In this document: piece by piece, positions 4,984-39,843 of the stretch | Layout of the letters: every line of letters begins with the position of its first letter | How positions within the stretch are numbered: position 1 is the stretch's first letter | Assembly (NCBI GenBank): GCA_049975765.1 | Contig: JBNGDZ010000003.1 | Location: 6,269-52,084, forward strand | Direction: 5' to 3' | DNA from: Armatimonadota bacterium | GTDB lineage: Bacteria > Armatimonadota > Zipacnadia > Zipacnadales > UBA5352 | Length of the DNA stretch: 45,816 bases | The notes under the pieces: generated by a model | What the model saw: only the letters and a program-made list of their open reading frames with translations | What the model was told of the DNA's origin: nothing | Databases searched by the model: none | Made by a program: the position numbers and the translations under genes

Positions 4984-6018
4984 TCATTCCGCCCCCGCCC
5001 CCGTAGCTGCTGGCGCCGTCGCCCGCGCCGCCTCCAGCATAGTCATGCTCATCATGCCGCGCTCCTCACGCAGCCGCTGCAGGGCCGCGATAACCTCCTC
5101 CAGGAGCCTCAGCTTTCGCTCCGTGTCGAGGGCGAAGTTGTGCGGGTGCCACCACAGGTGGTAGACGAGGCCCCGCCTGGCGGCGTGGCTCATGCTCCTC
5201 GTGATGCGTCTGACCAGCAGCCTGTCGAACGTCTCCCCCCGCACCCGCCCCGGCCGGAACAGGCGACTGGCGGTCACGTCCCAAGGGACCCCGTTGCCGA
5301 CGCTGGCCGGGGGATGGCAATTGCATCCCGACAGCGGCAGCACCTCGTCGAGAACGCGTAGGACGCGGCGCAACGCGCGGGCCCGCTCCCTGCTGCTGCG
5401 GGGCCGCGCCAGCCAGCCCGGCGCATTGCCGCGATACGCCACGATACCGTGGTCTGCGCAGACGCGCAGGCAGTCCTCAGCGACCTGGTTCTTCGGGAAG
5501 ATGATGCTCTGTGGGCGGGGCCCGATCCGGCCCAGCACATGCAGCGAGGCGACCAGATCGGCCTCGAAGGCGGCGGTCGTGTGCCCCGGCTCGGTGCAGT
5601 GGTAGTGCAGGAAGGTGTGTGTGGCCAGCTCCTGTCCGGGCGCGTTGACGATACTGCGCACCAGATCCGGCGCGAAATGCAGTTGCTTTTCTCCGTCACC
5701 GCCCTCTACCTGACGAATGTACTGGTACGGACACAGATCAGGGCCCTTGAAGTCGCTCCTCACCTTCGGCAGGTTCGCTCGCAGCTCATCCCAGTCCTGC
5801 AGCGCCAGCGCCCCAACGGTGCCCCAGGTGGCGTGCACGTCGCGGCTGACGAAGAGGTCGAGGAGGCGCGGGACCACCTCCCGCGCTCCGCGTATCCTGG
5901 CCGGCCAGTCTGAGTCCCCCCTCGACCCGCGCAGACCCCAGCCAAGCTCGAAGTCCAGCGAGATCACCATGATCCCGCCCGACGGCCCTGAGGGGGGTGC
6001 GGATGCCTCCCTACTCAT
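4984..6018 (-). CDS. Polysaccharide deacetylase-family (CE4-like) protein
   Basis: 344-aa ORF. Contains IMVISLDFELGWG, DVHATWGTVGAL and ELATHTFLHYHC, matching the NodB-type Asp/His motif layout. Its start overlaps the sulfotransferase stop by 8 nt (ATGAGTAG), indicating translational coupling. Confidence 0.7.
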   Translation of the reverse strand: MSREASAPPSGPSGGIMVISLDFELGWGLRGSRGDSDWPARIRGAREVVPRLLDLFVSRDVHATWGTVGALALQDWDELRANLPKVRSDFKGPDLCPYQYIRQVEGGDGEKQLHFAPDLVRSIVNAPGQELATHTFLHYHCTEPGHTTAAFEADLVASLHVLGRIGPRPQSIIFPKNQVAEDCLRVCADHGIVAYRGNAPGWLARPRSSRERARALRRVLRVLDEVLPLSGCNCHPPASVGNGVPWDVTASRLFRPGRVRGETFDRLLVRRITRSMSHAARRGLVYHLWWHPHNFALDTERKLRLLEEVIAALQRLREERGMMSMTMLEAARATAPAATGAGAE

Positions 6019-6889
6019 CCCAGCCCATGTCCCTGCCCAGCAGATCGCTGAGGCGCTCGTTGTGTGGTGCGAAGAGTTCGGTCAGTCGCCGCCTGATTGC
6101 CGGGGGCATGTCGCCCGGCCGCGCTCTGTTGAAGGCCCTGTAGTCCCCCCTCCACTCGTCCAGCCCGATGAACGCGCCGACCTGGGGCATCACCCGCCCG
6201 GGCTCGGCGAACATGTCCTCGCTGCGCACGATCATGATCTGCTCCCGCGGAAAGCGCTCAAACCAGGCCGCCAGATGGTCGGCATAGATGCCCTGCGAGA
6301 TGTAGGCGAAATCCTGATACGTCCGGTCATAGTAATCCTCGGACCGCATTCGAGCCAGCGCCCCGTCGAGCCGCCGGCTCTCCTGCTCCAGGGCGTCCTC
6401 AAAGGTCAGAGTCTCGACCCCAATGCGCACGGCGTGCTTGTAGTGCGACCAGGCACGCTCCACAGGATCGCGCGTCAGAGCGATGAGCTTTACCTCCGGC
6501 AGCGTCTCGGCGATCCGCCCCGGCGCCAGCGGGTGGAAGATGTACTCGGGGCTTGCCTCCCCGGTGAAAGCCCCTCCCAACTCCCGCCGCAGACGGGCCA
6601 TCTCGGCCCGCAGTGGGAAGTGAGCGCGGTACCATCCCAGCCCGCGCCCGAAGTCGCGGTCGAAGAATCTCAGTTGCTTGCGGAAGGCCTGCAGCACCTG
6701 CGGGTGGCTGGTGAGGTTGTAGTAGAGCGACGATGTCCCGCACCTCATGGCGCCGAATACGATGAAGTCGGGCAGCACGCGCCTGTGACTCGTCATCAGG
6801 CGCGGCAGGCGCCTGGCGCTGTGTACCGCCTCCTTTACCGGCCTGGGAATGTGTGCCTTGACTCGGGCTATGAGCGGCTTGCTCACCAC
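6011..6889 (-). CDS. Sulfotransferase-family protein (PAPS-dependent)
   Basis: 292-aa ORF with a GTG start preceded by AGGGGA. The 5'-phosphosulfate binding loop FIVFGAMRCGTSSLYYNL is followed by a KLIALTRDPVERAWSHY (3'-PB-like) region. Confidence 0.8.
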   Translation of the reverse strand: MVSKPLIARVKAHIPRPVKEAVHSARRLPRLMTSHRRVLPDFIVFGAMRCGTSSLYYNLTSHPQVLQAFRKQLRFFDRDFGRGLGWYRAHFPLRAEMARLRRELGGAFTGEASPEYIFHPLAPGRIAETLPEVKLIALTRDPVERAWSHYKHAVRIGVETLTFEDALEQESRRLDGALARMRSEDYYDRTYQDFAYISQGIYADHLAAWFERFPREQIMIVRSEDMFAEPGRVMPQVGAFIGLDEWRGDYRAFNRARPGDMPPAIRRRLTELFAPHNERLSDLLGRDMGWDE

Positions 6890-7056
6890 GTTTGTCCCCT
6901 ATTCGGCCCGCCGCCAAACATTACGCTGATCCGTCAGGGCCCGGCGGGGAGAGCACGACTACCGGCAGAGCGGTAGGGATGTGACGGGCGCCGGAACGGA
7001 GCTGCCTCAGGCGCTATGAAACATCACAGGCACGGCGCGGTCCACAACAGCGGCCA

Positions 7057-10000
7057 TCAGTCCTCCGCCCTCTCCGCAGGAACGACGCTGATGACCACGT
7101 CCGCACTCGTGTCCCCGAAGTCCAACTCGATACCTTCCCGGAGCTTCCCCTCCCGCACCAGCGCCGCCGTTGCCGCATCCCAAACGCGATAACGACAGGG
7201 GCCATCGAAGCCGCGAAGCGTCACGCGCAGGCGCCTCCGTCGGTCGGGCATTCGACAGCGCTCCACGGCGTGGATGTCGCACTCCATGATCTCATAGCGC
7301 GTGGCGTTACGCACGTAAGCGACCATCCAGCGCCGGTCGGACGACAGGGCGTAGGTGGTGTGGTTGCCCTCGCTTACGCGCACCGGCGAGGCCGCCTCCG
7401 CCGCCCGCCGCAGCGCGTCCTCAGCCGCCGGCCCGATCTCCTCGCGCGCGTCGAGCGTCACCAGGTAGCCGGCGCGGTCCGCCTCCGACCCGATGTACTC
7501 GCAGTCCACGGCCTGCGCCTGGAGCATCTCCTCGCACGCCACCAGGCGGCGGGCCGTCTCGGCGTCTATCTCGTCAAAGACCACGGCCACCGGCGGCTGT
7601 GCTCGACGGAACCGCGTCCAGTCTACCAGATTCCCGGCCTCGGCGAAAGCCCTCCGCAGCTCCTCCAGGGGCGGGGCCGACCACGAGATGGCCATCGTCT
7701 GCTGCAGCGTCAGCGCCAGGCCCATGGCGTCGCGGAGCTTGACCTGGAATTGCGGTGTCACCTTGATGCCGCACGCGACCTCCCCGTGATAGCTGGGAGG
7801 CGCCAGGTCGTAGAAGCGCGCGCAGACCGCCATGAAGCAGTCGGTGGGATACTGATGGGTCTGATAGGCCCGATAGCCGACGCCACCGTCGGTAGCCGGG
7901 GCGAACTCGGCGTAGCTTGCGGGGTGCCCCTCCCGGCAGTTGAGGATACCGCCGCCCTGCTCCAGCACCACCATCTGCTGCGGCGCGTGCCGCTTGATGA
8001 GGCTGTAGGCTCGGTTGATCCACTCCACCGGCAGAGCCTGGTCGTTCTCGCCCATGATGGTATAGGCCATGACCGCCGGATCGGAGCCGATGAAGCCCAG
8101 CAGCTCGTTGAGGTACTGCGACAGCAGCGCCCACATCTCGTCGTTGCGCCACTGCATCTGCTCCGGGTAGCCGGCCTCGAAGTAGGCGCTGACCGGCGGT
8201 CCGAACTGATTGTAGGGGTAGTGGAAGAGGTTGATGACCGCCCGAATGCCGTGGCGGCGAGCCGCGTCGAGAATGTAGCTGAGCTGCTCCAGGCCATGCA
8301 TCGCCAGGTGCCCGCCCGCGTCCAGGTAGTACTCGCGCACTTGGACGTTCGGGGTGATTCGGATGACCTCGACGCCGCTGTCCGCCAGGTGCGCCACGTA
8401 GCGCTGTATGTCCGCCCGTGGCATGACCCGCCATTTGGTGTGGGAGAGGTCTGCGCCCGCCCCCACGGCGCCCGAATAGTCGTCCAGGCCGGTGATCATG
8501 CGCCGGTCAGCAGCGCCGAGCTTCTCGTAGAGCACCCATGCGAACAGGTCCCCCAGCAGCGGGCCGGACGCCTCGCCATCGGGGGTGCAGTAGCTGCGCC
8601 TGGCGCGGTCGTAGCGGCTGAGGAAGTCCAGGTCGGTGACAGTGACTACGGCGCTGCCGGTGGCGAGCGTTCCACCTCCCTCACTCGCCGCCCGGAGCGA
8701 GATCTCGTGGCGACCGACCGGCAGTCCGACCAGCTCCGCCCGCCTCAGGCCGCTCTCGCCGACCGACGTCAGCTCGACGGGTCGGCCGTTGACGGTCGCG
8801 TAGAGCTGCCCTTCGTGCCCAATCGCACCATCGGCTCCGACGACGATCGCCTCCAGGGGCACCCCCTGCCTGGCGACATCCAGGGGGACGACAACCGGAG
8901 TGCGAGGGAGCACGGCGGCGGCCCCCGGCACGGTCAGGCGCAATGTCAGCCCCGGCCGCTGCGGGCCCTCGTCAGTGGCGCGGACCGTGACCACGAAGTC
9001 CATCTCGGCGCGGGCGTTGGGGCGCCCGGAGGCGCGGTAGATCTTCCGGAGGTCGAGCTCCCCCTCCGAGGGCGCGTCGGTCTCCTCGGTCTCCGCCAGG
9101 CGCCACACGAATTGATGGCCGCCGTCCGTCGCGCTCACGGCCAGCGACCAGGACACACCCCGTGGCTGAGCCGACCATCGCAGCCGGGGATGCTGGTCCA
9201 GGTTCCACTGCAGGGCCCGCAGCGCGAAGGTGGCCTCCGTCTCGCCTTCGGGCAGCAGGAACTCGGTCGTCTGCGCATCCACGTGCCGGATGGTGGGCTG
9301 GTCCGGCCAGCGTGGAACCTTGGGCAGCACCCAGCGGCGCAGCCGCAGCCAGCGGGAGACGCCGGACTCGCCCGTGAGCGGCATCTCGCCGGACGCCTCC
9401 CACGCGATGCAGCCGCCCGAGAGCCCCTCCTCGCTCGTCAGCCACCGCGTGGCCTGGTTGTAGACCACGGGGATCGCCAGCGGGTCGCTGGTCCCCGGTG
9501 GCGGAGGCGACGCCACCGGGAGCTTCTGCGCCTCGATCTGCAGGTCGTCTATGCAGGTGGCACCGCGGTTCTGCTCGTACTCGTCGGGCAGGTCCGGTCC
9601 GAGACGGTGCGAGTTCTGGAAGAAGCGCAGGAAGTAGGGCCCTCGCGTCAGGGCCCGGTGCTCCCGGAGAGTCGCCAGCGGCCGGTCTGACCCATCAGAC
9701 GTCACCTCGAGGACCTGCTCGGTGGATGAGAGCGTGAGAGCCATCCGATACCATCGGCCCTCCCGCACCTGCCCCTGTGCCGCCCGCTGGCTTCCCAGGA
9801 CAACGCAATCGTCCAGGCCGCCGCCCCCCAGTCCCACGTTGAGCCCCGACCATTCCCCGGAGCGCCGCAGCAGGGCCAGACCGCAGAAGTAGGTGTTGGG
9901 GCTGTCCTGCGCGAGCTGCTGGCGCCACCGTACCGTGGCGGGGAGGGCGATCGAGCGGTGCAGCAGCGCCCACGCCCACTTCCCCGTCTCGGGCGTGGTA

Positions 10001-31654: not shown

Positions 31655-31899
31655 CGTGGTCGCCCTCCCAGGTGACCTCTCTTGCTCCCGGCGGCCCTGC
31701 GGGGCTATTCGCCGCCGAGGGAAGCAGGCCTGCGTGCACAGCGCGTAGCGCGCGGGCCCAGATTGCCGCTGGGGGGCGCGGGTGCCCGCGAGGCCGCTGG
31801 CTTCCTACGACGGGCCTGGGGCGCAGGCGAGGTCGCGTGGTGCCTCCGGGCGCTCGCACGCACGCCACGGAGACCTGGGATTCGCGCCCGCGGCAGCCC

Positions 31900-31958
31900 T
31901 TGACATTTATGATACGATATGATATGCATATACACGCTCAGCAATGTTATGATACTCA
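31900..31958 (+). promoter_or_regulatory. AT-rich promoter/operator island upstream of the HTH-thioredoxin gene
   Basis: This is the only markedly AT-rich stretch in the window. Elements: TTGACA at 31900-31905; TATGATA heptamers at 31908-14, 31918-24 and 31948-54 (10- and 30-bp phasing); perfect palindrome ATATGCATAT at 31922-31931; extended -10-like TGtTATGAT at 31945-31953, ending 5 nt before ATG 31959, which has no SD sequence. Confidence 0.4.
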
Positions 31959-32579
31959 ATGGAGTGGATCGCGGTGGACTACCTGACCGTGACGGAGGCG
32001 GCGGAGGCGCTTCAGCTCAGCGTCCCCACCATCAAGCGCTATATCTACGACGGGAAGCTGAAGTCCGCCAAGCTCCCCGGGGGCCAGCACCGCATCCCCC
32101 GCAGCGAGATAGACCGCTTGCTGACACCCACCGGGGAGGAGCAAGCGGAGGCGCTATCTGAGGAGGCCTCGCCCGGCGTTGACAAGCGACTGGCGGTCAT
32201 TGAACGCTGGCTGAGCGACCTGCAGGCCGAGGTCGAGCGGCTGGATTCCACCGCGCAGGTGGTCGCATCCTTCTGCGAGCGCGTGCCGGGAGCGTTCGCC
32301 GAGCGCGCCGCCCCTGAGGGCGGGGGTCATCGCCTGTACATCCTGGGGACCGGCTGCCCCAAGTGCAATCGGCTCCATGAACTCACCACGGAGGCCCTCG
32401 ACGAGCTGGGTGTGGCGGATGCGACGGTGGAGCACATCAAGGAGCCCGCGGAGATCGCCACCTATGGGCCGGTCCTCACACCAGCGCTGGTGCTGGATGA
32501 CACGGTGCTGATCAGCGGCCGCGTTCCCTCCCCCGGTGCGCTCCGTGAGATGCTGCAGGAGCACCTGGAGTCGGCATGA
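31959..32579 (+). CDS. Fusion protein: excisionase/MerR-type HTH DNA-binding domain + coiled-coil linker + Thioredoxin_3 (CxxC) domain; putative redox-responsive regulator
   Basis: N-terminus LTVTEAAEALQLSVPTIKRYIYDGKLKSAKLPGGQHRIPRSEIDRLL is an HTH_17/excisionase pattern. C-terminus YILGTGCPKCNRLHELTTEALDELGV...YGPVLTPALVLDDTVLISGRVPS is the pattern of the small redox-active disulfide protein (Thioredoxin_3). Its stop forms an ATGA overlap with the permease gene. Confidence 0.8.
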   Translation: MEWIAVDYLTVTEAAEALQLSVPTIKRYIYDGKLKSAKLPGGQHRIPRSEIDRLLTPTGEEQAEALSEEASPGVDKRLAVIERWLSDLQAEVERLDSTAQVVASFCERVPGAFAERAAPEGGGHRLYILGTGCPKCNRLHELTTEALDELGVADATVEHIKEPAEIATYGPVLTPALVLDDTVLISGRVPSPGALREMLQEHLESA

Positions 32580-33376
32580 CCCGGCGCCGGTCGCGCGGCG
32601 CGGTCAGCAGGGCCCTGTGGGCCATTGCGCCGGTGGTGCTGGGTCTGATCATCTGGGCGGTGGTGGCAGCCGCGGTCAGGTCGCGGGCGCCCTTCCCGGG
32701 GCCAGTCGAAACCGCTGTCCGTCTCTTTGAGCTTCTTGGGGGCGAGCGCCTGCTCGACTACAGCATCTACACGCATGCGGGGGCGAGCCTCGCCCGCTGG
32801 ATCATCGGCTTCTGCATCGGGGCCTCCGCGGGCGTCACCGTAGCCGCGCTGGTGGGCTGGTCGCGGGTGGCGGAGCGGCTGATGATGCCGCTGGTCTACG
32901 TGCTGCAGCTCATCCCCGGCCTTGCCTGGATCCCCATCGCGATCCTGCTGCTCGGCATTGGGAACGAGGCCACGGTCTTCATGATTGTCATGACGGCGCT
33001 CGCCCCGGTGGCGGTGAACATGGTTGCAGGCCTCAAGAGCGCCTCCGAGCAGCATCTGCGGGTGGCGCGCATGGCCGGGGCCGGCCCCCGGGAGACCTTC
33101 TTCCACGTGCTTCTGCCCGGCTCCATCCCGCACCTGATGAGCGGCCTGCGCGTCGGGCTGGGCAACAGTTGGCGCGTGGTCGTCGCCGCTGAGATGGTCG
33201 TAGGCACCGGCTCGGGGCTGGGCTACAGCATCATCCAGTCGCGGTGGACTCTGGACTACGCTTCGGCCTTCGTCTGCATCATCCTGATCTGCCTGGTGGG
33301 ACTGGTCATCGAGTATCTGGGCTTCGCGCGGCTCGAGGAGGCCACAGTGCAGCGGTGGGGGATGGTGCGAGCCTGA
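32576..33376 (+). CDS. ABC transporter permease, NitT/TauT (nitrate/sulfonate/taurine/bicarbonate) family
   Basis: 266 aa, about 6 TM segments. EAA-loop region SASEQHLRVARMAGAGPRETFFHVLLPGSIPHLMSGLRVGLGNSWRVVVAAEM is typical of SsuC/TauC-like BPD_transp_1 permeases. Confidence 0.85.
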   Translation: MTRRRSRGAVSRALWAIAPVVLGLIIWAVVAAAVRSRAPFPGPVETAVRLFELLGGERLLDYSIYTHAGASLARWIIGFCIGASAGVTVAALVGWSRVAERLMMPLVYVLQLIPGLAWIPIAILLLGIGNEATVFMIVMTALAPVAVNMVAGLKSASEQHLRVARMAGAGPRETFFHVLLPGSIPHLMSGLRVGLGNSWRVVVAAEMVVGTGSGLGYSIIQSRWTLDYASAFVCIILICLVGLVIEYLGFARLEEATVQRWGMVRA

Positions 33377-34158
33377 TGGCGCTCATCGAGCTGTCCGACG
33401 TGGGGATGACCTTCACCGGCGCGAATGACAATGGCGCTGTCAGGGCGCTCGACGGCGTCACGCTGTCGGTTCGGGCCGGCGAGCTGGTGTGCGTGCTGGG
33501 CCCCAGCGGCTGCGGGAAGACCACGCTGCTAAACCTGGTGGCTGGCTTCATGCCCCCCACAGCGGGGAGCATTCGCTTCGACGGCAGGCCGGTGCGCAGC
33601 CCCGGACCCGACCGAGCGGTGGTCTTCCAGGACGCCGCGCTCTTCCCCTGGCTGAGCGTGGCCGGCAACATCGACTTCCCCATGCGCATGATCCACCGAC
33701 CGGAGGCTGAACGGCGCCGCGAACGCGAGCGGCTCATCGCCATGGTCGGGCTGGAGGGCTTCGAGGACGCCCATCCCCATGAGCTGAGCGGGGGGATGAA
33801 GCAGCGTGTCGCCATCGCCCGCGCGCTGGCACTGCAGCCCAGGGTGCTGCTGATGGATGAGCCCTTCGGCGCCCTCGACGCCCAGACCCGGGAGCGCCTG
33901 CAGGACGAGCTGCTCGGCATCTGGCGGCGCACGGGCACGACGATCCTGTTCGTGACCCACAACGTGGCGGAGGCGGCCTACCTCGGCGATCGGATCGTGG
34001 TATTCTCGCAACGGCCCGGACGGGTGCTGGACGACATCCCCGCCGAGCTGCCGCGGCCCCGCTCGCGCCTCTCCGACGGCGTCCGCTCCCTGGAGATGCG
34101 CCTGCTCCGGGAGCTGCCCGAGGTCCAAGACGTCAGTCCGGCGGCCGACTCCGCCTGA
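33376..34158 (+). CDS. ABC transporter ATP-binding protein, NitT/TauT family
   Basis: Track ORF 33244..34158 trimmed to ATG 33376 (TGATG overlap with the permease stop). Walker A GPSGCGKTT, Q-loop VFQD, signature LSGGMKQRVAIARAL, Walker B LLMDEPFGALD, H-loop VTHN. Confidence 0.9.
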   Translation: MALIELSDVGMTFTGANDNGAVRALDGVTLSVRAGELVCVLGPSGCGKTTLLNLVAGFMPPTAGSIRFDGRPVRSPGPDRAVVFQDAALFPWLSVAGNIDFPMRMIHRPEAERRRERERLIAMVGLEGFEDAHPHELSGGMKQRVAIARALALQPRVLLMDEPFGALDAQTRERLQDELLGIWRRTGTTILFVTHNVAEAAYLGDRIVVFSQRPGRVLDDIPAELPRPRSRLSDGVRSLEMRLLRELPEVQDVSPAADSA

Positions 34159-34179
34159 TATGATGCGAGGAGGTGCAGC

Positions 34180-35196
34180 ATGAGGCACGCACGACGTCTT
34201 CTGGTAGTGACGGTGGCGGTGAGCGCGGTGCTGACAGGCTGCGCGCGGAGGGAGCAGGCTCCTCCAGCGCCGGTCCAGATGCCGGAGCCAGTCGAGGAGG
34301 CGCGACGGCCGGTAACCGCGCGCTTCACCTACAGCGAGAAGACCTGCTACGCCCCGGTGATCGTCGCGGTCGAGAGGGGCCTTTACGCCGAGGAGGGGCT
34401 GAAGATCGAGAAGCAGGTGGTTACCGGCGGCATCGAGTCCGCGGAGGCCATCACCACCGGCCAGGCCGATCTGGCGGCGCTGGGCGACGCGCCGGCGGTC
34501 ATCTGTATGTCTCGCTCACCGAAGGTCAAGCTGCTGGCGCCGCTTGGCGACGGCGAGCGCATGCATCGCATCGTGGTCCGCTCGGACGCGGGGATCGACG
34601 AGCCCGCCGACCTGGCCGGCAGGCGCCTCGCCGTCCAGCACGGCTCCAGCACCCATGGCGCCCTGCTGCTGTATCTGAAGAAGCACAACGTGGACCCGGC
34701 CTCCGTCACCTTCGTCTCCCTCTCGCCGCGCGACTTCCCGGAGGCCATGTCGTCGGGGCAGATCGACGCCGCCGCCGGCAGCGCTCCCTGGCCTCAGAAC
34801 GTCCTGGCAACTTGTGACAATGCCGAGCTGTTCGCGAATCTGGAGGGCCTGGGCAACACCTACCCGGTGGTGATTCTCGTGCGCGGGGAGTTCGGCAGCG
34901 AGCACCCGGAGGCGGCGCGGGCCGTCGTGCGGGCGACCCAGGCCGCGGCCGACTGGATCGACGACCACCCGCAGGAGACCGCGGAGCTGCTCTCGCGCCG
35001 ATCCGGCGTCGAGCCCGACCGAGAGCGCGAGATGCTCAACGACTACCGCTTCGGCACCGATCTGACCCGGTCGGTCATCGACAGCCTGGAGATGACAGCC
35101 CACTTCCTCAAGGACCAGGGCCGCATCGACGAGGTACCGGACATCGAGGCCCAGCTCGCGCTGCCCGAGTTGCTGACTGAGGAGGAGCCTTCATGA
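34180..35196 (+). CDS. ABC transporter substrate-binding lipoprotein (NMT1/SsuA/TauA-like), copy 1
   Basis: Lipobox VLTGC. NMT1-like fold pattern: YAPVIVAVERGLYAEEGLKIE...GQADLAALGDAP...LAGRRLAVQHGSSTHG. GAGGAGG lies 6 nt upstream. Confidence 0.85.
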   Translation: MRHARRLLVVTVAVSAVLTGCARREQAPPAPVQMPEPVEEARRPVTARFTYSEKTCYAPVIVAVERGLYAEEGLKIEKQVVTGGIESAEAITTGQADLAALGDAPAVICMSRSPKVKLLAPLGDGERMHRIVVRSDAGIDEPADLAGRRLAVQHGSSTHGALLLYLKKHNVDPASVTFVSLSPRDFPEAMSSGQIDAAAGSAPWPQNVLATCDNAELFANLEGLGNTYPVVILVRGEFGSEHPEAARAVVRATQAAADWIDDHPQETAELLSRRSGVEPDREREMLNDYRFGTDLTRSVIDSLEMTAHFLKDQGRIDEVPDIEAQLALPELLTEEEPS

Positions 35197-36356
35197 CACT
35201 CAAGCTCGCGCGCCGCATCGTGCTATCCGCTGTGACGGTCGCCTCACTCGTTGCGCTAAACATGTTCTTGCCCCCCTCTGTGGAGGGCCAGTGCCCCAGA
35301 CCCGGGAGCTACTGGAAGTGCCCCGTCACCGAGCGCCCCGGCGAGCCAAGGCCGGGCGGCCTGACCGCTCGCGTGCAGGCGCGGTATTCCCACACGCAGA
35401 GCGACCCCGACCAGCCGACCTGGCTGGTGCGCGACGACCGAGCCGGCCGTGACGACTACAACACCAGGCGCCTCCGCCTCGCGTGGTCGCACCAGCCCTC
35501 CGAAGACCTGCTCGTCTTCGGCCAGATCCGCCGCGACTGGGGGGCCGACGAGTTCGAATGGCATGACCTCTACGCCACCTGGTCGGGGCTCGACTGGGGC
35601 AACCTCACCGTCGGTCAGATGATGGCGCCCTTCGACCGCCAGTTCATGACCAGCGACGTCAGGCTGCCCCTCGCGGAGCGGCCATCGTCCAGCATCCTGC
35701 TGGTTCCGGGCCGAGACATCGGCGCGCTGCTGCATGGCACGAGCAGGGATGGCTGCCTGGGCTGGTACGCCGGCCTCTACCTGGGTAACGGTAAGAACGA
35801 GCTCGACGCGACGGGCGCGCCGATGCCGGCGGCCCGAGTGGAATGGCTCGTCAGCGAGAACCTCAACCTAGGGGCGAACTGGGCACTGAACAACGGTGCC
35901 AGGACAAGCAAGTTCCGCAAATTCATCTCGGCGAACGGCGACCCCCTCGGCCTGGCGGAGCTCTACCGGGATCGGCAAGTGGACGAGGAGGCGTGGGGGC
36001 TGGATGCCATCTGGCGCGAGGGCCCGACCTCAGTCTGGGCCGGCTACAATGAGAAGAGCATCAGCGCCTCCGGCCGCCAGGGTGTCACCGCCAGCGGCTG
36101 CTACGCCCAGCTCAGCCGGTTCGTCCCGTGCAGCGGCGCTGAGGACAAGCTCGAGCTCGTGGGGGCGTGGGAGGAGTTCGATCCAGGCGCCGCGGCGCCG
36201 CCCAATCTGGAGGCCCGGTGGCTGACCCTGGGCGCGAACTACCACATCGAGGGCTGCGTGCGGCAGGTTCGGCTGCAATACATCCATCGCGACGAGGCCG
36301 CCGGGGACGTGAGCAACGACACCTTGCTGGTGCAGTACGAGCACGTGTTCAAGTAG
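35193..36356 (+). CDS. Outer-membrane porin, phosphate-selective porin O/P (OprO/OprP)-like, copy 1
   Basis: Signal peptide. Amphipathic beta-strand pattern: RVQARYSHTQ, RRLRLAWSHQPSEDLLVFGQI, LTVGQMMAPFDRQF, RDIGALLHG, WYAGLYLGNG. The C-terminus LLVQYEHVFK is a beta-barrel-type terminal aromatic. ATGA overlap with the binding-protein gene. Confidence 0.7.
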   Translation: MTLKLARRIVLSAVTVASLVALNMFLPPSVEGQCPRPGSYWKCPVTERPGEPRPGGLTARVQARYSHTQSDPDQPTWLVRDDRAGRDDYNTRRLRLAWSHQPSEDLLVFGQIRRDWGADEFEWHDLYATWSGLDWGNLTVGQMMAPFDRQFMTSDVRLPLAERPSSSILLVPGRDIGALLHGTSRDGCLGWYAGLYLGNGKNELDATGAPMPAARVEWLVSENLNLGANWALNNGARTSKFRKFISANGDPLGLAELYRDRQVDEEAWGLDAIWREGPTSVWAGYNEKSISASGRQGVTASGCYAQLSRFVPCSGAEDKLELVGAWEEFDPGAAAPPNLEARWLTLGANYHIEGCVRQVRLQYIHRDEAAGDVSNDTLLVQYEHVFK

Positions 36357-36383
36357 TGAGGGGCAAGAGGAGCATGATGCAGG

Positions 36384-36581
36384 AACGTGGCGGAGGCGGC
36401 CTACCTCGGCGATCGGATCGTGGTATTCTCGCAACGGCCCGGACGGGTGCTGGACGACATCCCCGCCGAGCTGCCGCGGCCCCGCTCGCGCCTCTCCGAC
36501 GGCGTCCGCTCCCTGGAGATGCGCCTGCTCCGGGAGCTGCCCGAGGTCCAAGACGTCAGTCCGGCGGCCGACTCCGCCTGA
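36384..36581 (+). pseudogene. 3' fragment (last ~65 codons) of the ABC ATPase gene, created by the tandem duplication
   Basis: Track ORF 36387..36581 (MAEAAYLGDRIVVFSQRPGRVLDDIPAELPRPRSRLSDGVRSLEMRLLRELPEVQDVSPAADSA) is identical to the C-terminus of 33376..34158. It lacks all nucleotide-binding motifs. Confidence 0.85.
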
Positions 36582-36602
36582 TATGATGCGAGGAGGTGCA
36601 GC

Positions 36603-37619
36603 ATGAGGCACGCACGACGTCTTCTGGTAGTGACGGTGGCGGTGAGCGCGGTGCTGACAGGCTGCGCGCGGAGGGAGCAGGCTCCTCCAGCGCCGGTCCA
36701 GATGCCGGAGCCAGTCGAGGAGGCGCGACGGCCGGTAACCGCGCGCTTCACCTACAGCGAGAAGACCTGCTACGCCCCGGTGATCGTCGCGGTCGAGAGG
36801 GGCCTTTACGCCGAGGAGGGGCTGAAGATCGAGAAGCAGGTGGTTACCGGCGGCATCGAGTCCGCGGAGGCCATCACCACCGGCCAGGCCGATCTGGCGG
36901 CGCTGGGCGACGCGCCGGCGGTCATCTGTATGTCTCGCTCACCGAAGGTCAAGCTGCTGGCGCCGCTTGGCGACGGCGAGCGCATGCATCGCATCGTGGT
37001 CCGCTCGGACGCGGGGATCGACGAGCCCGCCGACCTGGCCGGCAGGCGCCTCGCCGTCCAGCACGGCTCCAGCACCCATGGCGCCCTGCTGCTGTATCTG
37101 AAGAAGCACAACGTGGACCCGGCCTCCGTCACCTTCGTCTCCCTCTCGCCGCGCGACTTCCCGGAGGCCATGTCGTCGGGGCAGATCGACGCCGCCGCCG
37201 GCAGCGCTCCCTGGCCTCAGAACGTCCTGGCAACTTGTGACAATGCCGAGCTGTTCGCGAATCTGGAGGGCCTGGGCAACACCTACCCGGTGGTGATTCT
37301 CGTGCGCGGGGAGTTCGGCAGCGAGCACCCGGAGGCGGCGCGGGCCGTCGTGCGGGCGACCCAGGCCGCGGCCGACTGGATCGACGACCACCCGCAGGAG
37401 ACCGCGGAGCTGCTCTCGCGCCGATCCGGCGTCGAGCCCGACCGAGAGCGCGAGATGCTCAACGACTACCGCTTCGGCACCGATCTGACCCGGTCGGTCA
37501 TCGACAGCCTGGAGATGACAGCCCACTTCCTCAAGGACCAGGGCCGCATCGACGAGGTACCGGACATCGAGGCCCAGCTCGCGCTGCCCGAGTTGCTGAC
37601 TGAGGAGGAGCCTTCATGA
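36603..37619 (+). CDS. ABC transporter substrate-binding lipoprotein (NMT1/SsuA/TauA-like), copy 2
   Basis: 338-aa translation identical to 34180..35196. Confidence 0.8.
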   Translation: MRHARRLLVVTVAVSAVLTGCARREQAPPAPVQMPEPVEEARRPVTARFTYSEKTCYAPVIVAVERGLYAEEGLKIEKQVVTGGIESAEAITTGQADLAALGDAPAVICMSRSPKVKLLAPLGDGERMHRIVVRSDAGIDEPADLAGRRLAVQHGSSTHGALLLYLKKHNVDPASVTFVSLSPRDFPEAMSSGQIDAAAGSAPWPQNVLATCDNAELFANLEGLGNTYPVVILVRGEFGSEHPEAARAVVRATQAAADWIDDHPQETAELLSRRSGVEPDREREMLNDYRFGTDLTRSVIDSLEMTAHFLKDQGRIDEVPDIEAQLALPELLTEEEPS

Positions 37620-38779
37620 CACTCAAGCTCGCGCGCCGCATCGTGCTATCCGCTGTGACGGTCGCCTCACTCGTTGCGCTAAACATGTTCTTGCCCCCCT
37701 CTGTGGAGGGCCAGTGCCCCAGACCCGGGAGCTACTGGAAGTGCCCCGTCACCGAGCGCCCCGGCGAGCCAAGGCCGGGCGGCCTGACCGCTCGCGTGCA
37801 GGCGCGGTATTCCCACACGCAGAGCGACCCCGACCAGCCGACCTGGCTGGTGCGCGACGACCGAGCCGGCCGTGACGACTACAACACCAGGCGCCTCCGC
37901 CTCGCGTGGTCGCACCAGCCCTCCGAAGACCTGCTCGTCTTCGGCCAGATCCGCCGCGACTGGGGGGCCGACGAGTTCGAATGGCATGACCTCTACGCCA
38001 CCTGGTCGGGGCTCGACTGGGGCAACCTCACCGTCGGTCAGATGATGGCGCCCTTCGACCGCCAGTTCATGACCAGCGACGTCAGGCTGCCCCTCGCGGA
38101 GCGGCCATCGTCCAGCATCCTGCTGGTTCCGGGCCGAGACATCGGCGCGCTGCTGCATGGCACGAGCAGGGATGGCTGCCTGGGCTGGTACGCCGGCCTC
38201 TACCTGGGTAACGGTAAGAACGAGCTCGACGCGACGGGCGCGCCGATGCCGGCGGCCCGAGTGGAATGGCTCGTCAGCGAGAACCTCAACCTAGGGGCGA
38301 ACTGGGCACTGAACAACGGTGCCAGGACAAGCAAGTTCCGCAAATTCATCTCGGCGAACGGCGACCCCCTCGGCCTGGCGGAGCTCTACCGGGATCGGCA
38401 AGTGGACGAGGAGGCGTGGGGGCTGGATGCCATCTGGCGCGAGGGCCCGACCTCAGTCTGGGCCGGCTACAATGAGAAGAGCATCAGCGCCTCCGGCCGC
38501 CAGGGTGTCACCGCCAGCGGCTGCTACGCCCAGCTCAGCCGGTTCGTCCCGTGCAGCGGCGCTGAGGACAAGCTCGAGCTCGTGGGGGCGTGGGAGGAGT
38601 TCGATCCAGGCGCCGCGGCGCCGCCCAATCTGGAGGCCCGGTGGCTGACCCTGGGCGCGAACTACCACATCGAGGGCTGCGTGCGGCAGGTTCGGCTGCA
38701 ATACATCCATCGCGACGAGGCCGCCGGGGACGTGAGCAACGACACCTTGCTGGTGCAGTACGAGCACGTGTTCAAGTAG
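37616..38779 (+). CDS. OprO/OprP-like porin, copy 2
   Basis: 387-aa translation identical to 35193..36356. Confidence 0.7.
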   Translation: MTLKLARRIVLSAVTVASLVALNMFLPPSVEGQCPRPGSYWKCPVTERPGEPRPGGLTARVQARYSHTQSDPDQPTWLVRDDRAGRDDYNTRRLRLAWSHQPSEDLLVFGQIRRDWGADEFEWHDLYATWSGLDWGNLTVGQMMAPFDRQFMTSDVRLPLAERPSSSILLVPGRDIGALLHGTSRDGCLGWYAGLYLGNGKNELDATGAPMPAARVEWLVSENLNLGANWALNNGARTSKFRKFISANGDPLGLAELYRDRQVDEEAWGLDAIWREGPTSVWAGYNEKSISASGRQGVTASGCYAQLSRFVPCSGAEDKLELVGAWEEFDPGAAAPPNLEARWLTLGANYHIEGCVRQVRLQYIHRDEAAGDVSNDTLLVQYEHVFK

Positions 38780-38796
38780 TGAGGGGCAAGAGGAGC

Positions 38797-39843
38797 ATGA
38801 TGCAGGGCAGAGAGCGCATGCTGACGGCGCTACGAGGGGAGAGGCCGGATCGGGTGCCCATCTTCCTGCGCGACCTGACCCTCGGCCTGGACCTGTGTGA
38901 CTTCAGCACCCCTCAGGTCAGCGCCGGCTATGACGCGGACAGAGCCGCCGAGGCCGTGCTCACCAGCCGGAGGCGCTTCCATCAGGACGCGGTTGTCGGC
39001 TGCATCCACGACCTGGGGTTGGACGTCGAGCCGTTGGGCGGGCGCGTGGAGTTCCCGGAGCGCGGCATCCCGTTCATACGCGAGCATCCGCTCGCCGAGG
39101 ACGAGGCGGCGGCTGCGGCGGAGCCCTTCGACCCCGCTGAGGCCGGCCGGTGGCCGCAGGTGGAGAAGGCCTACCGGCTGGTGCGGCAGCGGCTCGGTGA
39201 CAGCGCGGCGGTGGCCGCCAACGTCGAGGGGCCGGTCACGCGGGCGGGGCTGCTGCGGGGCCTGGAGCGTCTGGCCATGGACCTGGCGACCGACCGCGGC
39301 ATGGCGCAGCGGCTCGTGGAGCTTTCGACGGAGATCGCCGTCAGGCACGTCCCCAGGCTGCTGGAGGCCGGCGCGGACTTCATCTTCATCGCCGCCGCCT
39401 CCGACGGCCCCGCCGTAATCTCGCCCCGTGACTACCTGGAGCTGACCATCCCCGGCCTGCGGCGGATTGTCCGGGCCGCGGGCGACGCGCCGGTGGTCTT
39501 TCATCCGCACGGGCGCTTCACCGACCCGCGCTTCCAGAAGCTGGTTGACGCGGCCATCGACTGCGGAATCGCCGGCTTCCAGTTCGGGGAGCACTGCGAC
39601 CTGGCGGTGGCCAGAGAGCGGTGGGGCGACCGCATCTGCATCCTGGGCGGCCCCGACATCCCGGAGGTGCTGCTGCCCGGGCCGCCCGAGCGCGTCCGAG
39701 AGGTGACCAGGGAGTGTCTCCAGCAGGCGATGGGCGATGGCGGCTACGTTCTCATGGCCTCCTGCTCCCTGCACCGCGGCGCTCCCCTGGAGCACCTGGA
39801 CGCCATGGTGCAGACGGTGCTCGATGAGGGCGGGTACGGGTAG
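38797..39843 (+). CDS. Uroporphyrinogen decarboxylase (URO-D) family protein (MtaA/CmuA-like methyltransferase/decarboxylase fold)
   Basis: Track ORF 38590..39843 trimmed to ATGATG at 38797/38800, which has AAGAGGAG upstream. N-terminus MMQGRERMLTALRGERPDRVPIF is the typical URO-D family opening. Also contains AAVAANVEGPVTRAGLLRG, AGADFIFIAAASDGPAVISPRDY and ILGGPDIPEVLLPG. Confidence 0.75.
   Translation: MMQGRERMLTALRGERPDRVPIFLRDLTLGLDLCDFSTPQVSAGYDADRAAEAVLTSRRRFHQDAVVGCIHDLGLDVEPLGGRVEFPERGIPFIREHPLAEDEAAAAAEPFDPAEAGRWPQVEKAYRLVRQRLGDSAAVAANVEGPVTRAGLLRGLERLAMDLATDRGMAQRLVELSTEIAVRHVPRLLEAGADFIFIAAASDGPAVISPRDYLELTIPGLRRIVRAAGDAPVVFHPHGRFTDPRFQKLVDAAIDCGIAGFQFGEHCDLAVARERWGDRICILGGPDIPEVLLPGPPERVREVTRECLQQAMGDGGYVLMASCSLHRGAPLEHLDAMVQTVLDEGGYG

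Follow-up and report, generated by a model that had tools for sequence, protein, structure and literature searches.

Thiol-based transcription switches are known on several scaffolds, among them OxyR, OhrR, Spx, ArsR and the MerR-type regulators NmlR and SoxR. In Spx, a thioredoxin-like fold of the ArsC family carries a CxxC motif whose redox state governs transcription; this protein has no DNA-binding domain and acts via the alpha subunit of RNA polymerase. We know of no DNA-binding protein that has a separate thioredoxin-fold domain as its sensor, and literature searches found no paper on a thioredoxin-fold sensor domain of a DNA-binding protein. BldC binds 9-bp direct repeats head-to-tail, as cooperative multimers and in variable numbers, using only its winged helix (PMC5859096). 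Here, we analyze a gene of an Armatimonadota bacterium that lies at 31959-32579 of a 45,816-nucleotide stretch of contig JBNGDZ010000003.1 (assembly GCA_049975765.1; hereafter the window), and whose product joins an excisionase-type winged helix-turn-helix (HTH) to a thioredoxin-fold domain. It very probably encodes a DNA-binding regulator of its own operon, because phased repeats are conserved beside the gene in relatives down to 31-39% identity. Taken as a whole, our reading is that of an autoregulated one-component regulator that would bind DNA head-to-tail in a BldC-like manner and be switched by its cysteines, to which we give a probability of roughly 0.55.

Architecture, reading frame and distribution of the regulator

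The two ends of the protein belong to known domain families. Residues 8-55 match Pfam HTH_17 (PF12728; E 1.2e-14, 54.7 bits against a cut-off of 27) and residues 127-199 match Pfam Thioredoxin_3 (PF13192, or Trx_3; E 2.1e-19, 69.8 bits against 24.8), while in NCBIfam the protein exceeds the cut-offs of TIGR01764 'excise' (46.5 bits against 28.8) and of TIGR00412, the MTH895/ArsE family (74.5 bits against 62). Pfam MerR (PF00376) stays under its cut-off (19.4 bits against 28.2), as does the BldC family model NF033787 (25.2 bits against 77), and the ArsC and Spx models of Pfam and NCBIfam give no match. The database annotation of the protein is generic only. By family membership, disulfide oxidoreductase or organoarsenical-resistance activities are candidates for the C-terminal domain.

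Structural comparison agrees with these assignments. An AlphaFold2 model built with 33 homologues (mean predicted local distance difference test score, pLDDT, of 89) begins with a winged helix at residues 8-55, which a linker (56-73) joins to one unbroken helix (74-108); a further linker leads to a thioredoxin fold of beta-alpha type at 125-205. Sequence profile searches of the PDB retrieve 6ama/6amk (BldC) and 4j2n (mycobacteriophage Xis) for the N-terminal domain, and 1ilo (MtH895) for the C-terminal one (E 8.8e-12). With Foldseek, the N-terminal domain superposes on DNA-bound BldC (6ama) with a template modelling (TM) score of 0.86 on target length, a root-mean-square deviation (rmsd) of 1.0 A and 33% identity, and the C-terminal domain on 1ilo with a TM score of 0.79 on target length and 39% identity; the CxxC that opens helix 1 and the cis-Pro loop of the Thioredoxin_3/TIGR00412 fold are both present. 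The original prediction had seen an excisionase/MerR-type HTH at residues ~8-55, a dimerizing coiled coil at ~75-105 and a thioredoxin-like part at ~125-200. The last two are borne out, the (probably dimerizing) coiled coil by the single modelled helix and its conserved a/d heptads, the thioredoxin part by family scores, sequence and fold; of the first, the excisionase half holds and the MerR half does not, the domain being closest to BldC.

In the 33-sequence alignment, T24, K26, R27 and Y28 of the recognition helix and the wing motif KLPGGxHR are invariant, as are both cysteines of the CxxC and the Thr-Pro pair, whose Pro175 we take, from the general features of the fold, to be the cis-proline. 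CxxC and cis-Pro form the thiol-disulfide exchange site of the thioredoxin fold. The dipeptide within the CxxC is basic in the family, with a C(R/K)(R/K)C consensus. Helix positions 78, 81, 85, 88, 92, 95, 99 and 102 are hydrophobic in 85-100% of homologues, giving a clean a/d register. A third cysteine, Cys106, is kept in 29 of the 33 homologues (88%) and at the equivalent place in four of six very divergent members. It would occupy an 'a' position of the coiled coil, from where it might bond with its counterpart in a parallel dimer, or else complete a three-thiol site with the CxxC.

Concerning the start codon, the open reading frame (ORF) had been taken to begin at ATG 31959, and this part of the original prediction has to be revised: GTG 31974, 15 nt downstream, is the more likely start. 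A sister strain (96% identical) reads ATG AGG TGA, with an in-frame stop, where the window reads ATG GAG TGG; homologues align with N-termini of the form M-x-x-L-T five codons downstream of ATG 31959; and a GGAG box stands 9 nt before the GTG, while ATG 31959 has no Shine-Dalgarno box. At the place of this GGAG the sister strain has AGGTGA, and it has ATA at the position of the GTG. A leaderless start at ATG 31959 was considered and is unsupported, given the in-frame stop and the later start of the homologues. The translational coupling proposed for the other end of the gene is upheld, as an ATGA overlap joins its stop codon to the start of the permease gene.

The fusion is genuine rather than the product of a sequencing error. 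A word-indexed search of 5.8 billion proteins gave 142 clusters, and all those listed have both Pfam domains in ~190-230 aa; an exhaustive search of 1.84 billion representatives at 50% identity gave 12 full-length proteins, the remaining matches being a lone Trx_3 or a lone HTH. Trx_3 proteins of ~165 aa from the latter search were set aside as a different architecture, their N-terminal region being unrelated and not an HTH. With one genome for each of 185,579 species, we found 24 loci of a close subfamily, all in Armatimonadota, and 7 further full-length loci of a divergent subfamily, which include metagenome-assembled genomes (MAGs) labelled Syntrophomonadaceae and Bacillota. The architecture is therefore rare, at ~31 of the 185,579 species genomes, nearly all of them Armatimonadota with a few labelled Bacillota. 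Of the 79 genomes in the class to which the window's genome belongs, 23 carry the gene, each as a single copy, and they fall into 17 of the 38 genera. Four independent metagenome runs, from brine and oil field, yield contigs over the ORF that differ by substitutions and never by indels. The original prediction could name no characterized member with this architecture, and none came to light: our literature searches on the architecture, on ArsE and on DGC proteins found no study of the fusion.

The repeat array and the operons behind it

Upstream of the gene lies an AT-rich island in which TATGATA occurs at 31908, 31918 and 31948, and TGATAYNNNNTGATA occurs once in the window against 0.09 expected. 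In the related loci listed below, a TTGACN box stands in the corresponding region and leads into direct repeats of 10 bp, two to four in number and of consensus TGATACGNTA, which are strand-specific; in most related loci examined by eye, the box lies 3-15 nt upstream of the repeats. This layout precedes the regulator in L001, L002, L004 and L005, as well as in L068 and L069, and the two-unit tandem arrangement of the window is shared by L001, L002, L004, L014 and L099. The box-and-repeat layout is retained where identity to the window protein falls to 31-39%, in genomes of 44-65% G+C: L090 (four units), L091 (three), L093 (three; Syntrophomonadaceae) and L099 (two). Box and repeats stand upstream of regulator-importer operons in G000, G241, G104, G176, L090 and L099, and of regulator-TRAP transporter operons in L091 and L093; where the regulator is last in its operon, the array lies upstream of the operon's first gene.

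The repeats are phased. Across 41 operon-upstream regions, which include some chosen after repeats had already been seen there, the core G[AC]TA[CT] occurs almost only on the sense strand, with two antisense pairs, and nearly all core spacings are multiples of five (5:22, 10:19, 15:8, 20:8, 25:5, 30:7), against ~0.1 per spacing in shuffles. A repeat search of the island reported no inverted repeat. Comparison with the sister strain shows 31906-31925 and 31949-31961 unchanged, and 13 substitutions in the 23 bases 31926-31948. The phased repeats originally noted in the island are thus confirmed by the TATGATA copies and by the array upstream of the relatives' operons, and the island is a conserved, operator-like array; the proposal of a one-component DNA-binding regulator, which had accompanied them, becomes very probable. 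A brine-metagenome strain has a 13-nt insertion (GATCTCCACCCTT) at window position 31813, upstream of TTGACA and within the GC-rich stretch of the intergenic DNA.

Three operon types recur with the regulator. In the first, the regulator is followed by a permease and ATPase of NitT/TauT type, the ABC family to which those of the window belong, with one or two NMT1/SsuA-like binding proteins and an OprO/P-like porin. This context occurs in at least 11 loci (the window, G241, G104, G176, L090, L092, L094-L097 and L099), sometimes with a DUF5714 or a BioB-like radical-SAM gene between regulator and importer; the importer-porin gene set follows the regulator in L001, L002, L004, L092, L094, L095, L097 and L099. 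In L091 and L093 a fused DctM and a TAXI (NMT1_3) binding protein take the place of the importer. We had considered that the importer link might be limited to the closest relatives, and this is overturned by the members of 31-39% identity, which have the importer-porin operon or its TAXI-TRAP equivalent. In the second type, an N_methyl/SBP_bac_10 pseudopilin-like gene is followed by a TlpA-like thioredoxin, in some loci by CcdA, and then by the regulator (L006, L007, L011, L013, L014, L015 and L029; in L009 the regulator is upstream of the pseudopilin gene), and the array is found upstream of these operons too. In the third, the regulator precedes two DGC genes and a MIP channel gene (G257, G149 and G221), and the array stands before operons of this form as well; in G000 and G241 a DGC-DGC-MIP operon carries the array but is unlinked to the regulator.

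Two genomes show reciprocal arrangements. In G000 the regulator is with the importer, and the DGC-MIP operon lies elsewhere with an array; in G223 the regulator, cut by the contig start, is with DGC, and the importer lies elsewhere with an array. This is the strongest single argument that one factor ties these operons together, and that factor would most simply be the regulator protein.

A scan of the 5.16-Mb assembly with a position weight matrix of the repeat units points the same way. Two sites are outliers, the next best scoring 19.4: the gene's own promoter (30.7, the best in the genome; this site was in the training set), and the promoter of the DGC-MIP operon on contig C26 (29.6; outside the training set). 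A strict pattern, TGATACGNTNTGAT, has 20 matches in the 79 class genomes against 1 for the reversed control, and at least 13 of the 20 are just upstream of one of the three operon types. It is present in 10 of the 23 genomes carrying the gene and in 4 of the 56 without it (Fisher p = 3.7e-4, a test that overstates independence because the genomes are phylogenetically related). One genome counted as gene-less in this tally, G223, does carry the gene. Its contig C199 begins within the regulator homologue (1-66, locus L173), and these first 66 nt encode the family C-terminus just before a DGC gene; because such a contig-end gene is scored as lacking, presence/absence tallies over draft MAGs undercount. 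Over the whole phylum, the motif has 34 matches (11 in the control), mostly chance occurrences in lower-GC genomes. The motif signal is confined to the class carrying the gene.

The regulator had been linked to the importer operon in the window. That link is recurrent, as shown by its loci, but the importer is not the whole regulon, which probably also takes in the DGC-DGC-MIP and pseudopilin-TlpA-CcdA operons. In the window's genome, the probable targets are the regulator's own operon and the unlinked DGC-DGC-MIP operon; in other genomes, the array also stands before pseudopilin-TlpA-CcdA operons.

Some features of these operons deserve mention in their own right. On contig C26, the two DGC-domain proteins and the MIP-family channel are encoded at ~5645-7470 (L031 2145-3970, minus strand), preceded by TTGACT and TGATACGCTT TGATGCGCTA, the genome's only other strong operator-like site; the second NPA box of the MIP protein reads NPMRDFAPR. 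Contig C18 (1-4720; L032) has an ArsP_1-type permease, a lone Trx_3 protein (also with CPKC), a reductase-like gene, a TlpA-like thioredoxin, CcdA and an ArsM-like Cys-rich S-adenosylmethionine methyltransferase, the permease and the methyltransferase being assigned by eye; the promoter of this cluster is not visible because the contig starts inside the first gene. In G257, a second, stand-alone Trx_3-like ORF (L003 8299-8517) lies ~2 kb downstream of the regulator-DGC-DGC-MIP operon. In the divergent subfamily, a DUF5714 gene directly follows the regulator (L092 5656-6279, L098 5645-6301, and the equivalent in L094-L099), and its product has a partial match to the 'metal-binding double selenoprotein MbdU' model and a weak one to the C_GCAxxG_C_C putative redox-active family. 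The probable regulon includes a BioB/PylB-like radical-SAM gene at two places: behind a stand-alone array in G176 (contig C146; L088 1592-2692), and between regulator and importer genes in L090 (5632-6618).

Downstream of the regulator in the window, the binding-protein and porin genes and the 3' end of the ATPase gene occur twice, as an identical tandem unit (33961-38806; ORFs 34180-36356 and 36603-38779), and in single copy in the 96% identical sister strain L001. The unit could be either a real recent duplication or an assembly artefact. The gene that follows it (38797-39843) has its best matches among MtaA/CmuA methylcobamide:thiol methyltransferases, below equivalog cut-offs, a hint that what is imported may be a thiol or some methylated compound. 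Coordinates of all features in the window are collected in Table 1.

Table 1. Regulator gene, upstream elements and neighbouring genes in the window.
Feature	Residues	Position	Strand	Remark
TTGACA, -35-like box		31900-31905	+	read from sequence
Two tandem 10-bp putative operator units, TGATACGATA TGATATGCAT		31910-31929	+	
Third copy, TTATGATAC		31947-31955	+	40 bp past the first; kept in sister strain
ORF as first given		31959-32579	+	open, 206 aa
GGAG, Shine-Dalgarno-like box		31961-31964	+	9 nt before GTG 31974; read from sequence
Probable coding sequence		31974-32579	+	GTG start, 201 aa
Winged HTH, HTH_17/excisionase type	8-55	31980-32123	+	Pfam, NCBIfam, PDB sequence search, Foldseek
Variable low-confidence linker	56-73	32124-32177	+	pLDDT 50-76; length and sequence vary in alignment
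Long helix, ~four heptads, probable dimerizing coiled coil	74-108	32178-32282	+	
Cys106 codon, end of helix	106	32274-32276	+	heptad 'a' register
MTH895/ArsE-type thioredoxin fold	125-205	32331-32573	+	
CPKC (Cys133, Cys136)	133-136	32355-32366	+	both Cys invariant, 33/33 homologues
Thr174-Pro175, presumed thioredoxin-fold cis-proline position	174-175	32478-32483	+	invariant in alignment
ATGA stop/start overlap		32576-32579	+	regulator stop and permease start
Co-operonic importer genes		32576-36356	+	
Permease		32576-33376	+	
ATPase		33376-34158	+	
NMT1/SsuA-like binding protein		34180-35196	+	
OprO/P-like porin		35193-36356	+	
URO-D-family, MtaA/CmuA-like methyltransferase gene		38797-39843	+	after duplicated unit; operon membership uncertain

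Proposed mechanism, candidate signals and alternatives

The regulator protein would itself bind the repeat motif, and the invariant CxxC and Thr-Pro pair, the frequent Cys106 and the gene context suggest that the thiol state of the CxxC may control this binding. In the mechanism that we propose, the protein would dimerize through its four-heptad coiled coil, and the winged helices would lie side by side, head-to-tail, on the direct repeats of TGATACGNTA, with the flexible 18-residue linker letting two heads sit on successive decamers. Being just downstream of TTGACN, the repeats would overlap the core promoter, and for this reason binding would most simply repress. The sensor would consist of the thioredoxin fold, with its CxxC and cis-Pro, and of Cys106, which is nearly invariant and stands where the coiled coil ends. 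The reduced protein would occupy the repeats and repress; a disulfide within the CxxC, or one of the CxxC/Cys106 with a partner or a small thiol, or else the capture of a thiophilic ligand, would change the geometry or the oligomeric state of the protein and so release the promoter.

Several observations weigh against this mechanism. A symmetric coiled-coil dimer is not an obvious match for direct repeats, and the flexible linker is our proposed way round this difficulty. A promoter scan found no canonical -35/-10 pair, so that it is uncertain where the operator lies with respect to the transcription start, and hence whether binding represses or activates. Fewer than half of the genomes carrying the gene (10 of 23) have the strict motif, and the relatedness of the genomes tempers its statistical association with the gene. 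About one third of the family loci are stand-alone genes with no recognizable array upstream, and no classical oxidative-stress genes are found among the probable targets. The window protein is also the sole member of the alignment with a proline in the CxxC dipeptide, and the sequence was found in DNA metagenomes only (brine, oil field and sludge).

As to the signal, disulfide chemistry (including a mixed disulfide or a persulfide) is the one we favour over a metalloid, with a likelihood that comes close to an even chance. The redox motif itself, the TlpA-CcdA neighbours and the Cys-rich DGC and DUF5714 neighbours all point to a dithiol-disulfide signal. The SsuA-like binding protein and the MtaA/CmuA-like gene hint at a thiol-bearing sulfonate that would be both imported and sensed, which is speculation. 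A fuller version of the model would make this protein the first DNA-binding regulator with an ArsE-type thioredoxin-fold sensor, assembling head-to-tail in BldC-like fashion as coiled-coil dimers on repeats phased by 5/10 bp, with a three-Cys site (Cys106 plus CxxC) that would take a metalloid, a persulfide, or an organosulfur or selenium solute bearing a thiol, and with a previously unrecognized regulon devoted to one compound that comprises the NMT1-type importer and anion porin, DGC, DUF5714, radical-SAM, the MIP channel and TlpA-CcdA. We regard this version as tentative and rather less than an even bet.

The best-surviving alternative keeps the same regulator and operator and changes the signal, which would be a trivalent metalloid or organoarsenical (As(III), Sb(III) or MAs(III)) bound in three-coordinate fashion by Cys133, Cys136 and Cys106, giving an ArsR-like function on a different scaffold. 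The third cysteine in 88% of homologues would suit such a site, and the sensor domain scores above the MTH895/ArsE family cut-off. Two DGC proteins are among the probable targets, and so is a MIP channel with a GlpF-like NPMRDFAPR box, and aquaglyceroporins conduct As(OH)3; yet the MIP protein reaches only the general NCBIfam MIP model, its best equivalog being AqpZ, below cut-off. The TlpA-CcdA pair of contig C18 is clustered with an ArsP_1-like permease, a lone Trx_3 and an ArsM-like methyltransferase. Moreover, a stand-alone PF13192 'ArsE' protein lies beside ArsP and a DGC-domain protein in an ArsR-ArsP-ArsE(PF13192)-DGC operon of P. mercurii ND132 that is among those listed as differentially expressed with arsenic (bioRxiv 10.1101/2022.10.17.512643). 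However, none of the regulator operons examined has an Acr3/ArsB, ArsC or ArsR gene, DGC operons occur without the regulator gene in 8 of 56 genomes, and the commonest partner is an importer with binding protein and porin, which would be odd for a response to a toxic metalloid. We consider a metalloid signal possible, with about one chance in four.

A second alternative is that the thioredoxin domain is catalytic and acts in the cytoplasm as a dedicated reductant of CcdA or of the Cys-rich DGC/DUF5714 proteins, with the HTH providing merely autoregulation or tethering and no switch. CcdA takes electrons from cytoplasmic thioredoxin, and the gene is last in the pseudopilin-TlpA-CcdA operons of at least seven genomes, while DGC or DUF5714 genes lie directly downstream of it in many loci; the CxxC and the cis-Pro (TP) are kept as in an active oxidoreductase. 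But in many loci, the window among them, the regulator adjoins neither a CcdA gene nor one for DGC or DUF5714, it is hard to see what catalytic purpose would be served by attaching a diffusible redox carrier to a sequence-specific DNA-binding head and a coiled coil, and turnover would itself modulate the thiol state, so that this explanation shades into the sensor model. It appears unlikely.

That the protein is instead a recombination directionality factor or an architectural protein of a mobile element, with the repeats as recombination or packaging sites, is highly improbable. The N-terminal domain does match TIGR01764 and the mycobacteriophage Xis structure 4j2n, and Xis proteins also bind phased direct repeats; but a survey of ORFs and Pfam domains over ~27.5-42.5 kb of the window showed no integrase or phage genes, the chromosomal metabolic and transport contexts are kept across genera, and the repeats are always upstream of operons, in sense orientation to them and beside a TTGACN box. 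The idea of a mobile-element excisionase is rejected on this context. Finally, that the fusion is an assembly or sequencing artefact is ruled out, for all practical purposes, by the 142 clusters from many studies (those listed all having both domains), the 31 species-representative loci and the four independent runs.

Significance and comparison with known systems

What is newly described here is a putative operator array and three probable types of target operon, the component domain families being already known. If the cysteine-switched mechanism holds, thiol-based regulators would gain a new type of sensor module, BldC-type binding of direct repeats would be extended to a signal-responsive regulator, and there would be a first functional handle on ArsE/Trx_3, DGC and DUF5714 proteins, which are poorly understood and co-occur with small thioredoxin-like proteins in many anaerobes. 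The importance of the finding is limited by the rarity of the family, which is confined to uncultured Armatimonadota and a few Bacillota MAGs. It nonetheless offers a system open to direct testing, with one defined protein, three cysteines as candidates, an operator unit of 10 bp and, within a single genome, two promoters predicted as targets.

Among described regulators, the order of parts is that of the MerR family (SoxR, CueR, NmlR), with an N-terminal winged helix, a long dimerizing helix and a C-terminal sensor, and some MerR proteins are thiol or redox sensors. The resemblance does not go much further. HiNmlR (5d90) matches the regulator poorly (rmsd 8.5 A, TM score 0.38 on target length), and an 18-residue flexible linker replaces the tight hinge of MerR proteins. 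MerR promoter spacers are typically 19-20 bp; here, TTGACA and a -10 placed by eye 17 bp downstream would define a spacer unlike these, and it is direct repeats that are conserved instead of a palindromic operator within a 19-20-bp spacer. A classical MerR mechanism is rejected on the sub-cut-off hidden Markov model score, the poor HiNmlR match and these conserved direct repeats.

The ArsR/SmtB, OxyR, OhrR, SqrR/BigR and CstR proteins are likewise one-component regulators that rely on cysteine chemistry (metalloid binding, or di-/polysulfide formation), but their folds are unrelated, and their sensor cysteines lie in the DNA-binding or dimerization scaffold itself, with no separate thioredoxin domain. 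For the sensor, the counterpart is MtH895/ArsE (1ilo; TIGR00412; PF13192), of which the C-terminal domain is a member by score, sequence and fold, keeping the CxxC and the Thr-Pro pair. MtH895/ArsE proteins, however, are stand-alone, ~77-85 aa long and without a DNA-binding part, whereas the present domain forms the C-terminal part of a regulator of 200 aa.

For DNA binding, Streptomyces BldC (6ama/6amk) is the closest solved structure to the N-terminal domain, with the GG-H/Q-x-R wing and the recognition-helix arginine aligned, and its AT-containing 9-bp repeats in variable numbers match the two to four phased direct repeats seen here. BldC differs in being 68 aa long, without coiled coil or effector domain, and the repeat unit here is 10 bp and of another sequence. 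By analogy with these systems, the regulator would be a hybrid, combining the DNA-binding mode of BldC, the domain order of the MerR type and the thioredoxin sensor of MtH895/ArsE.

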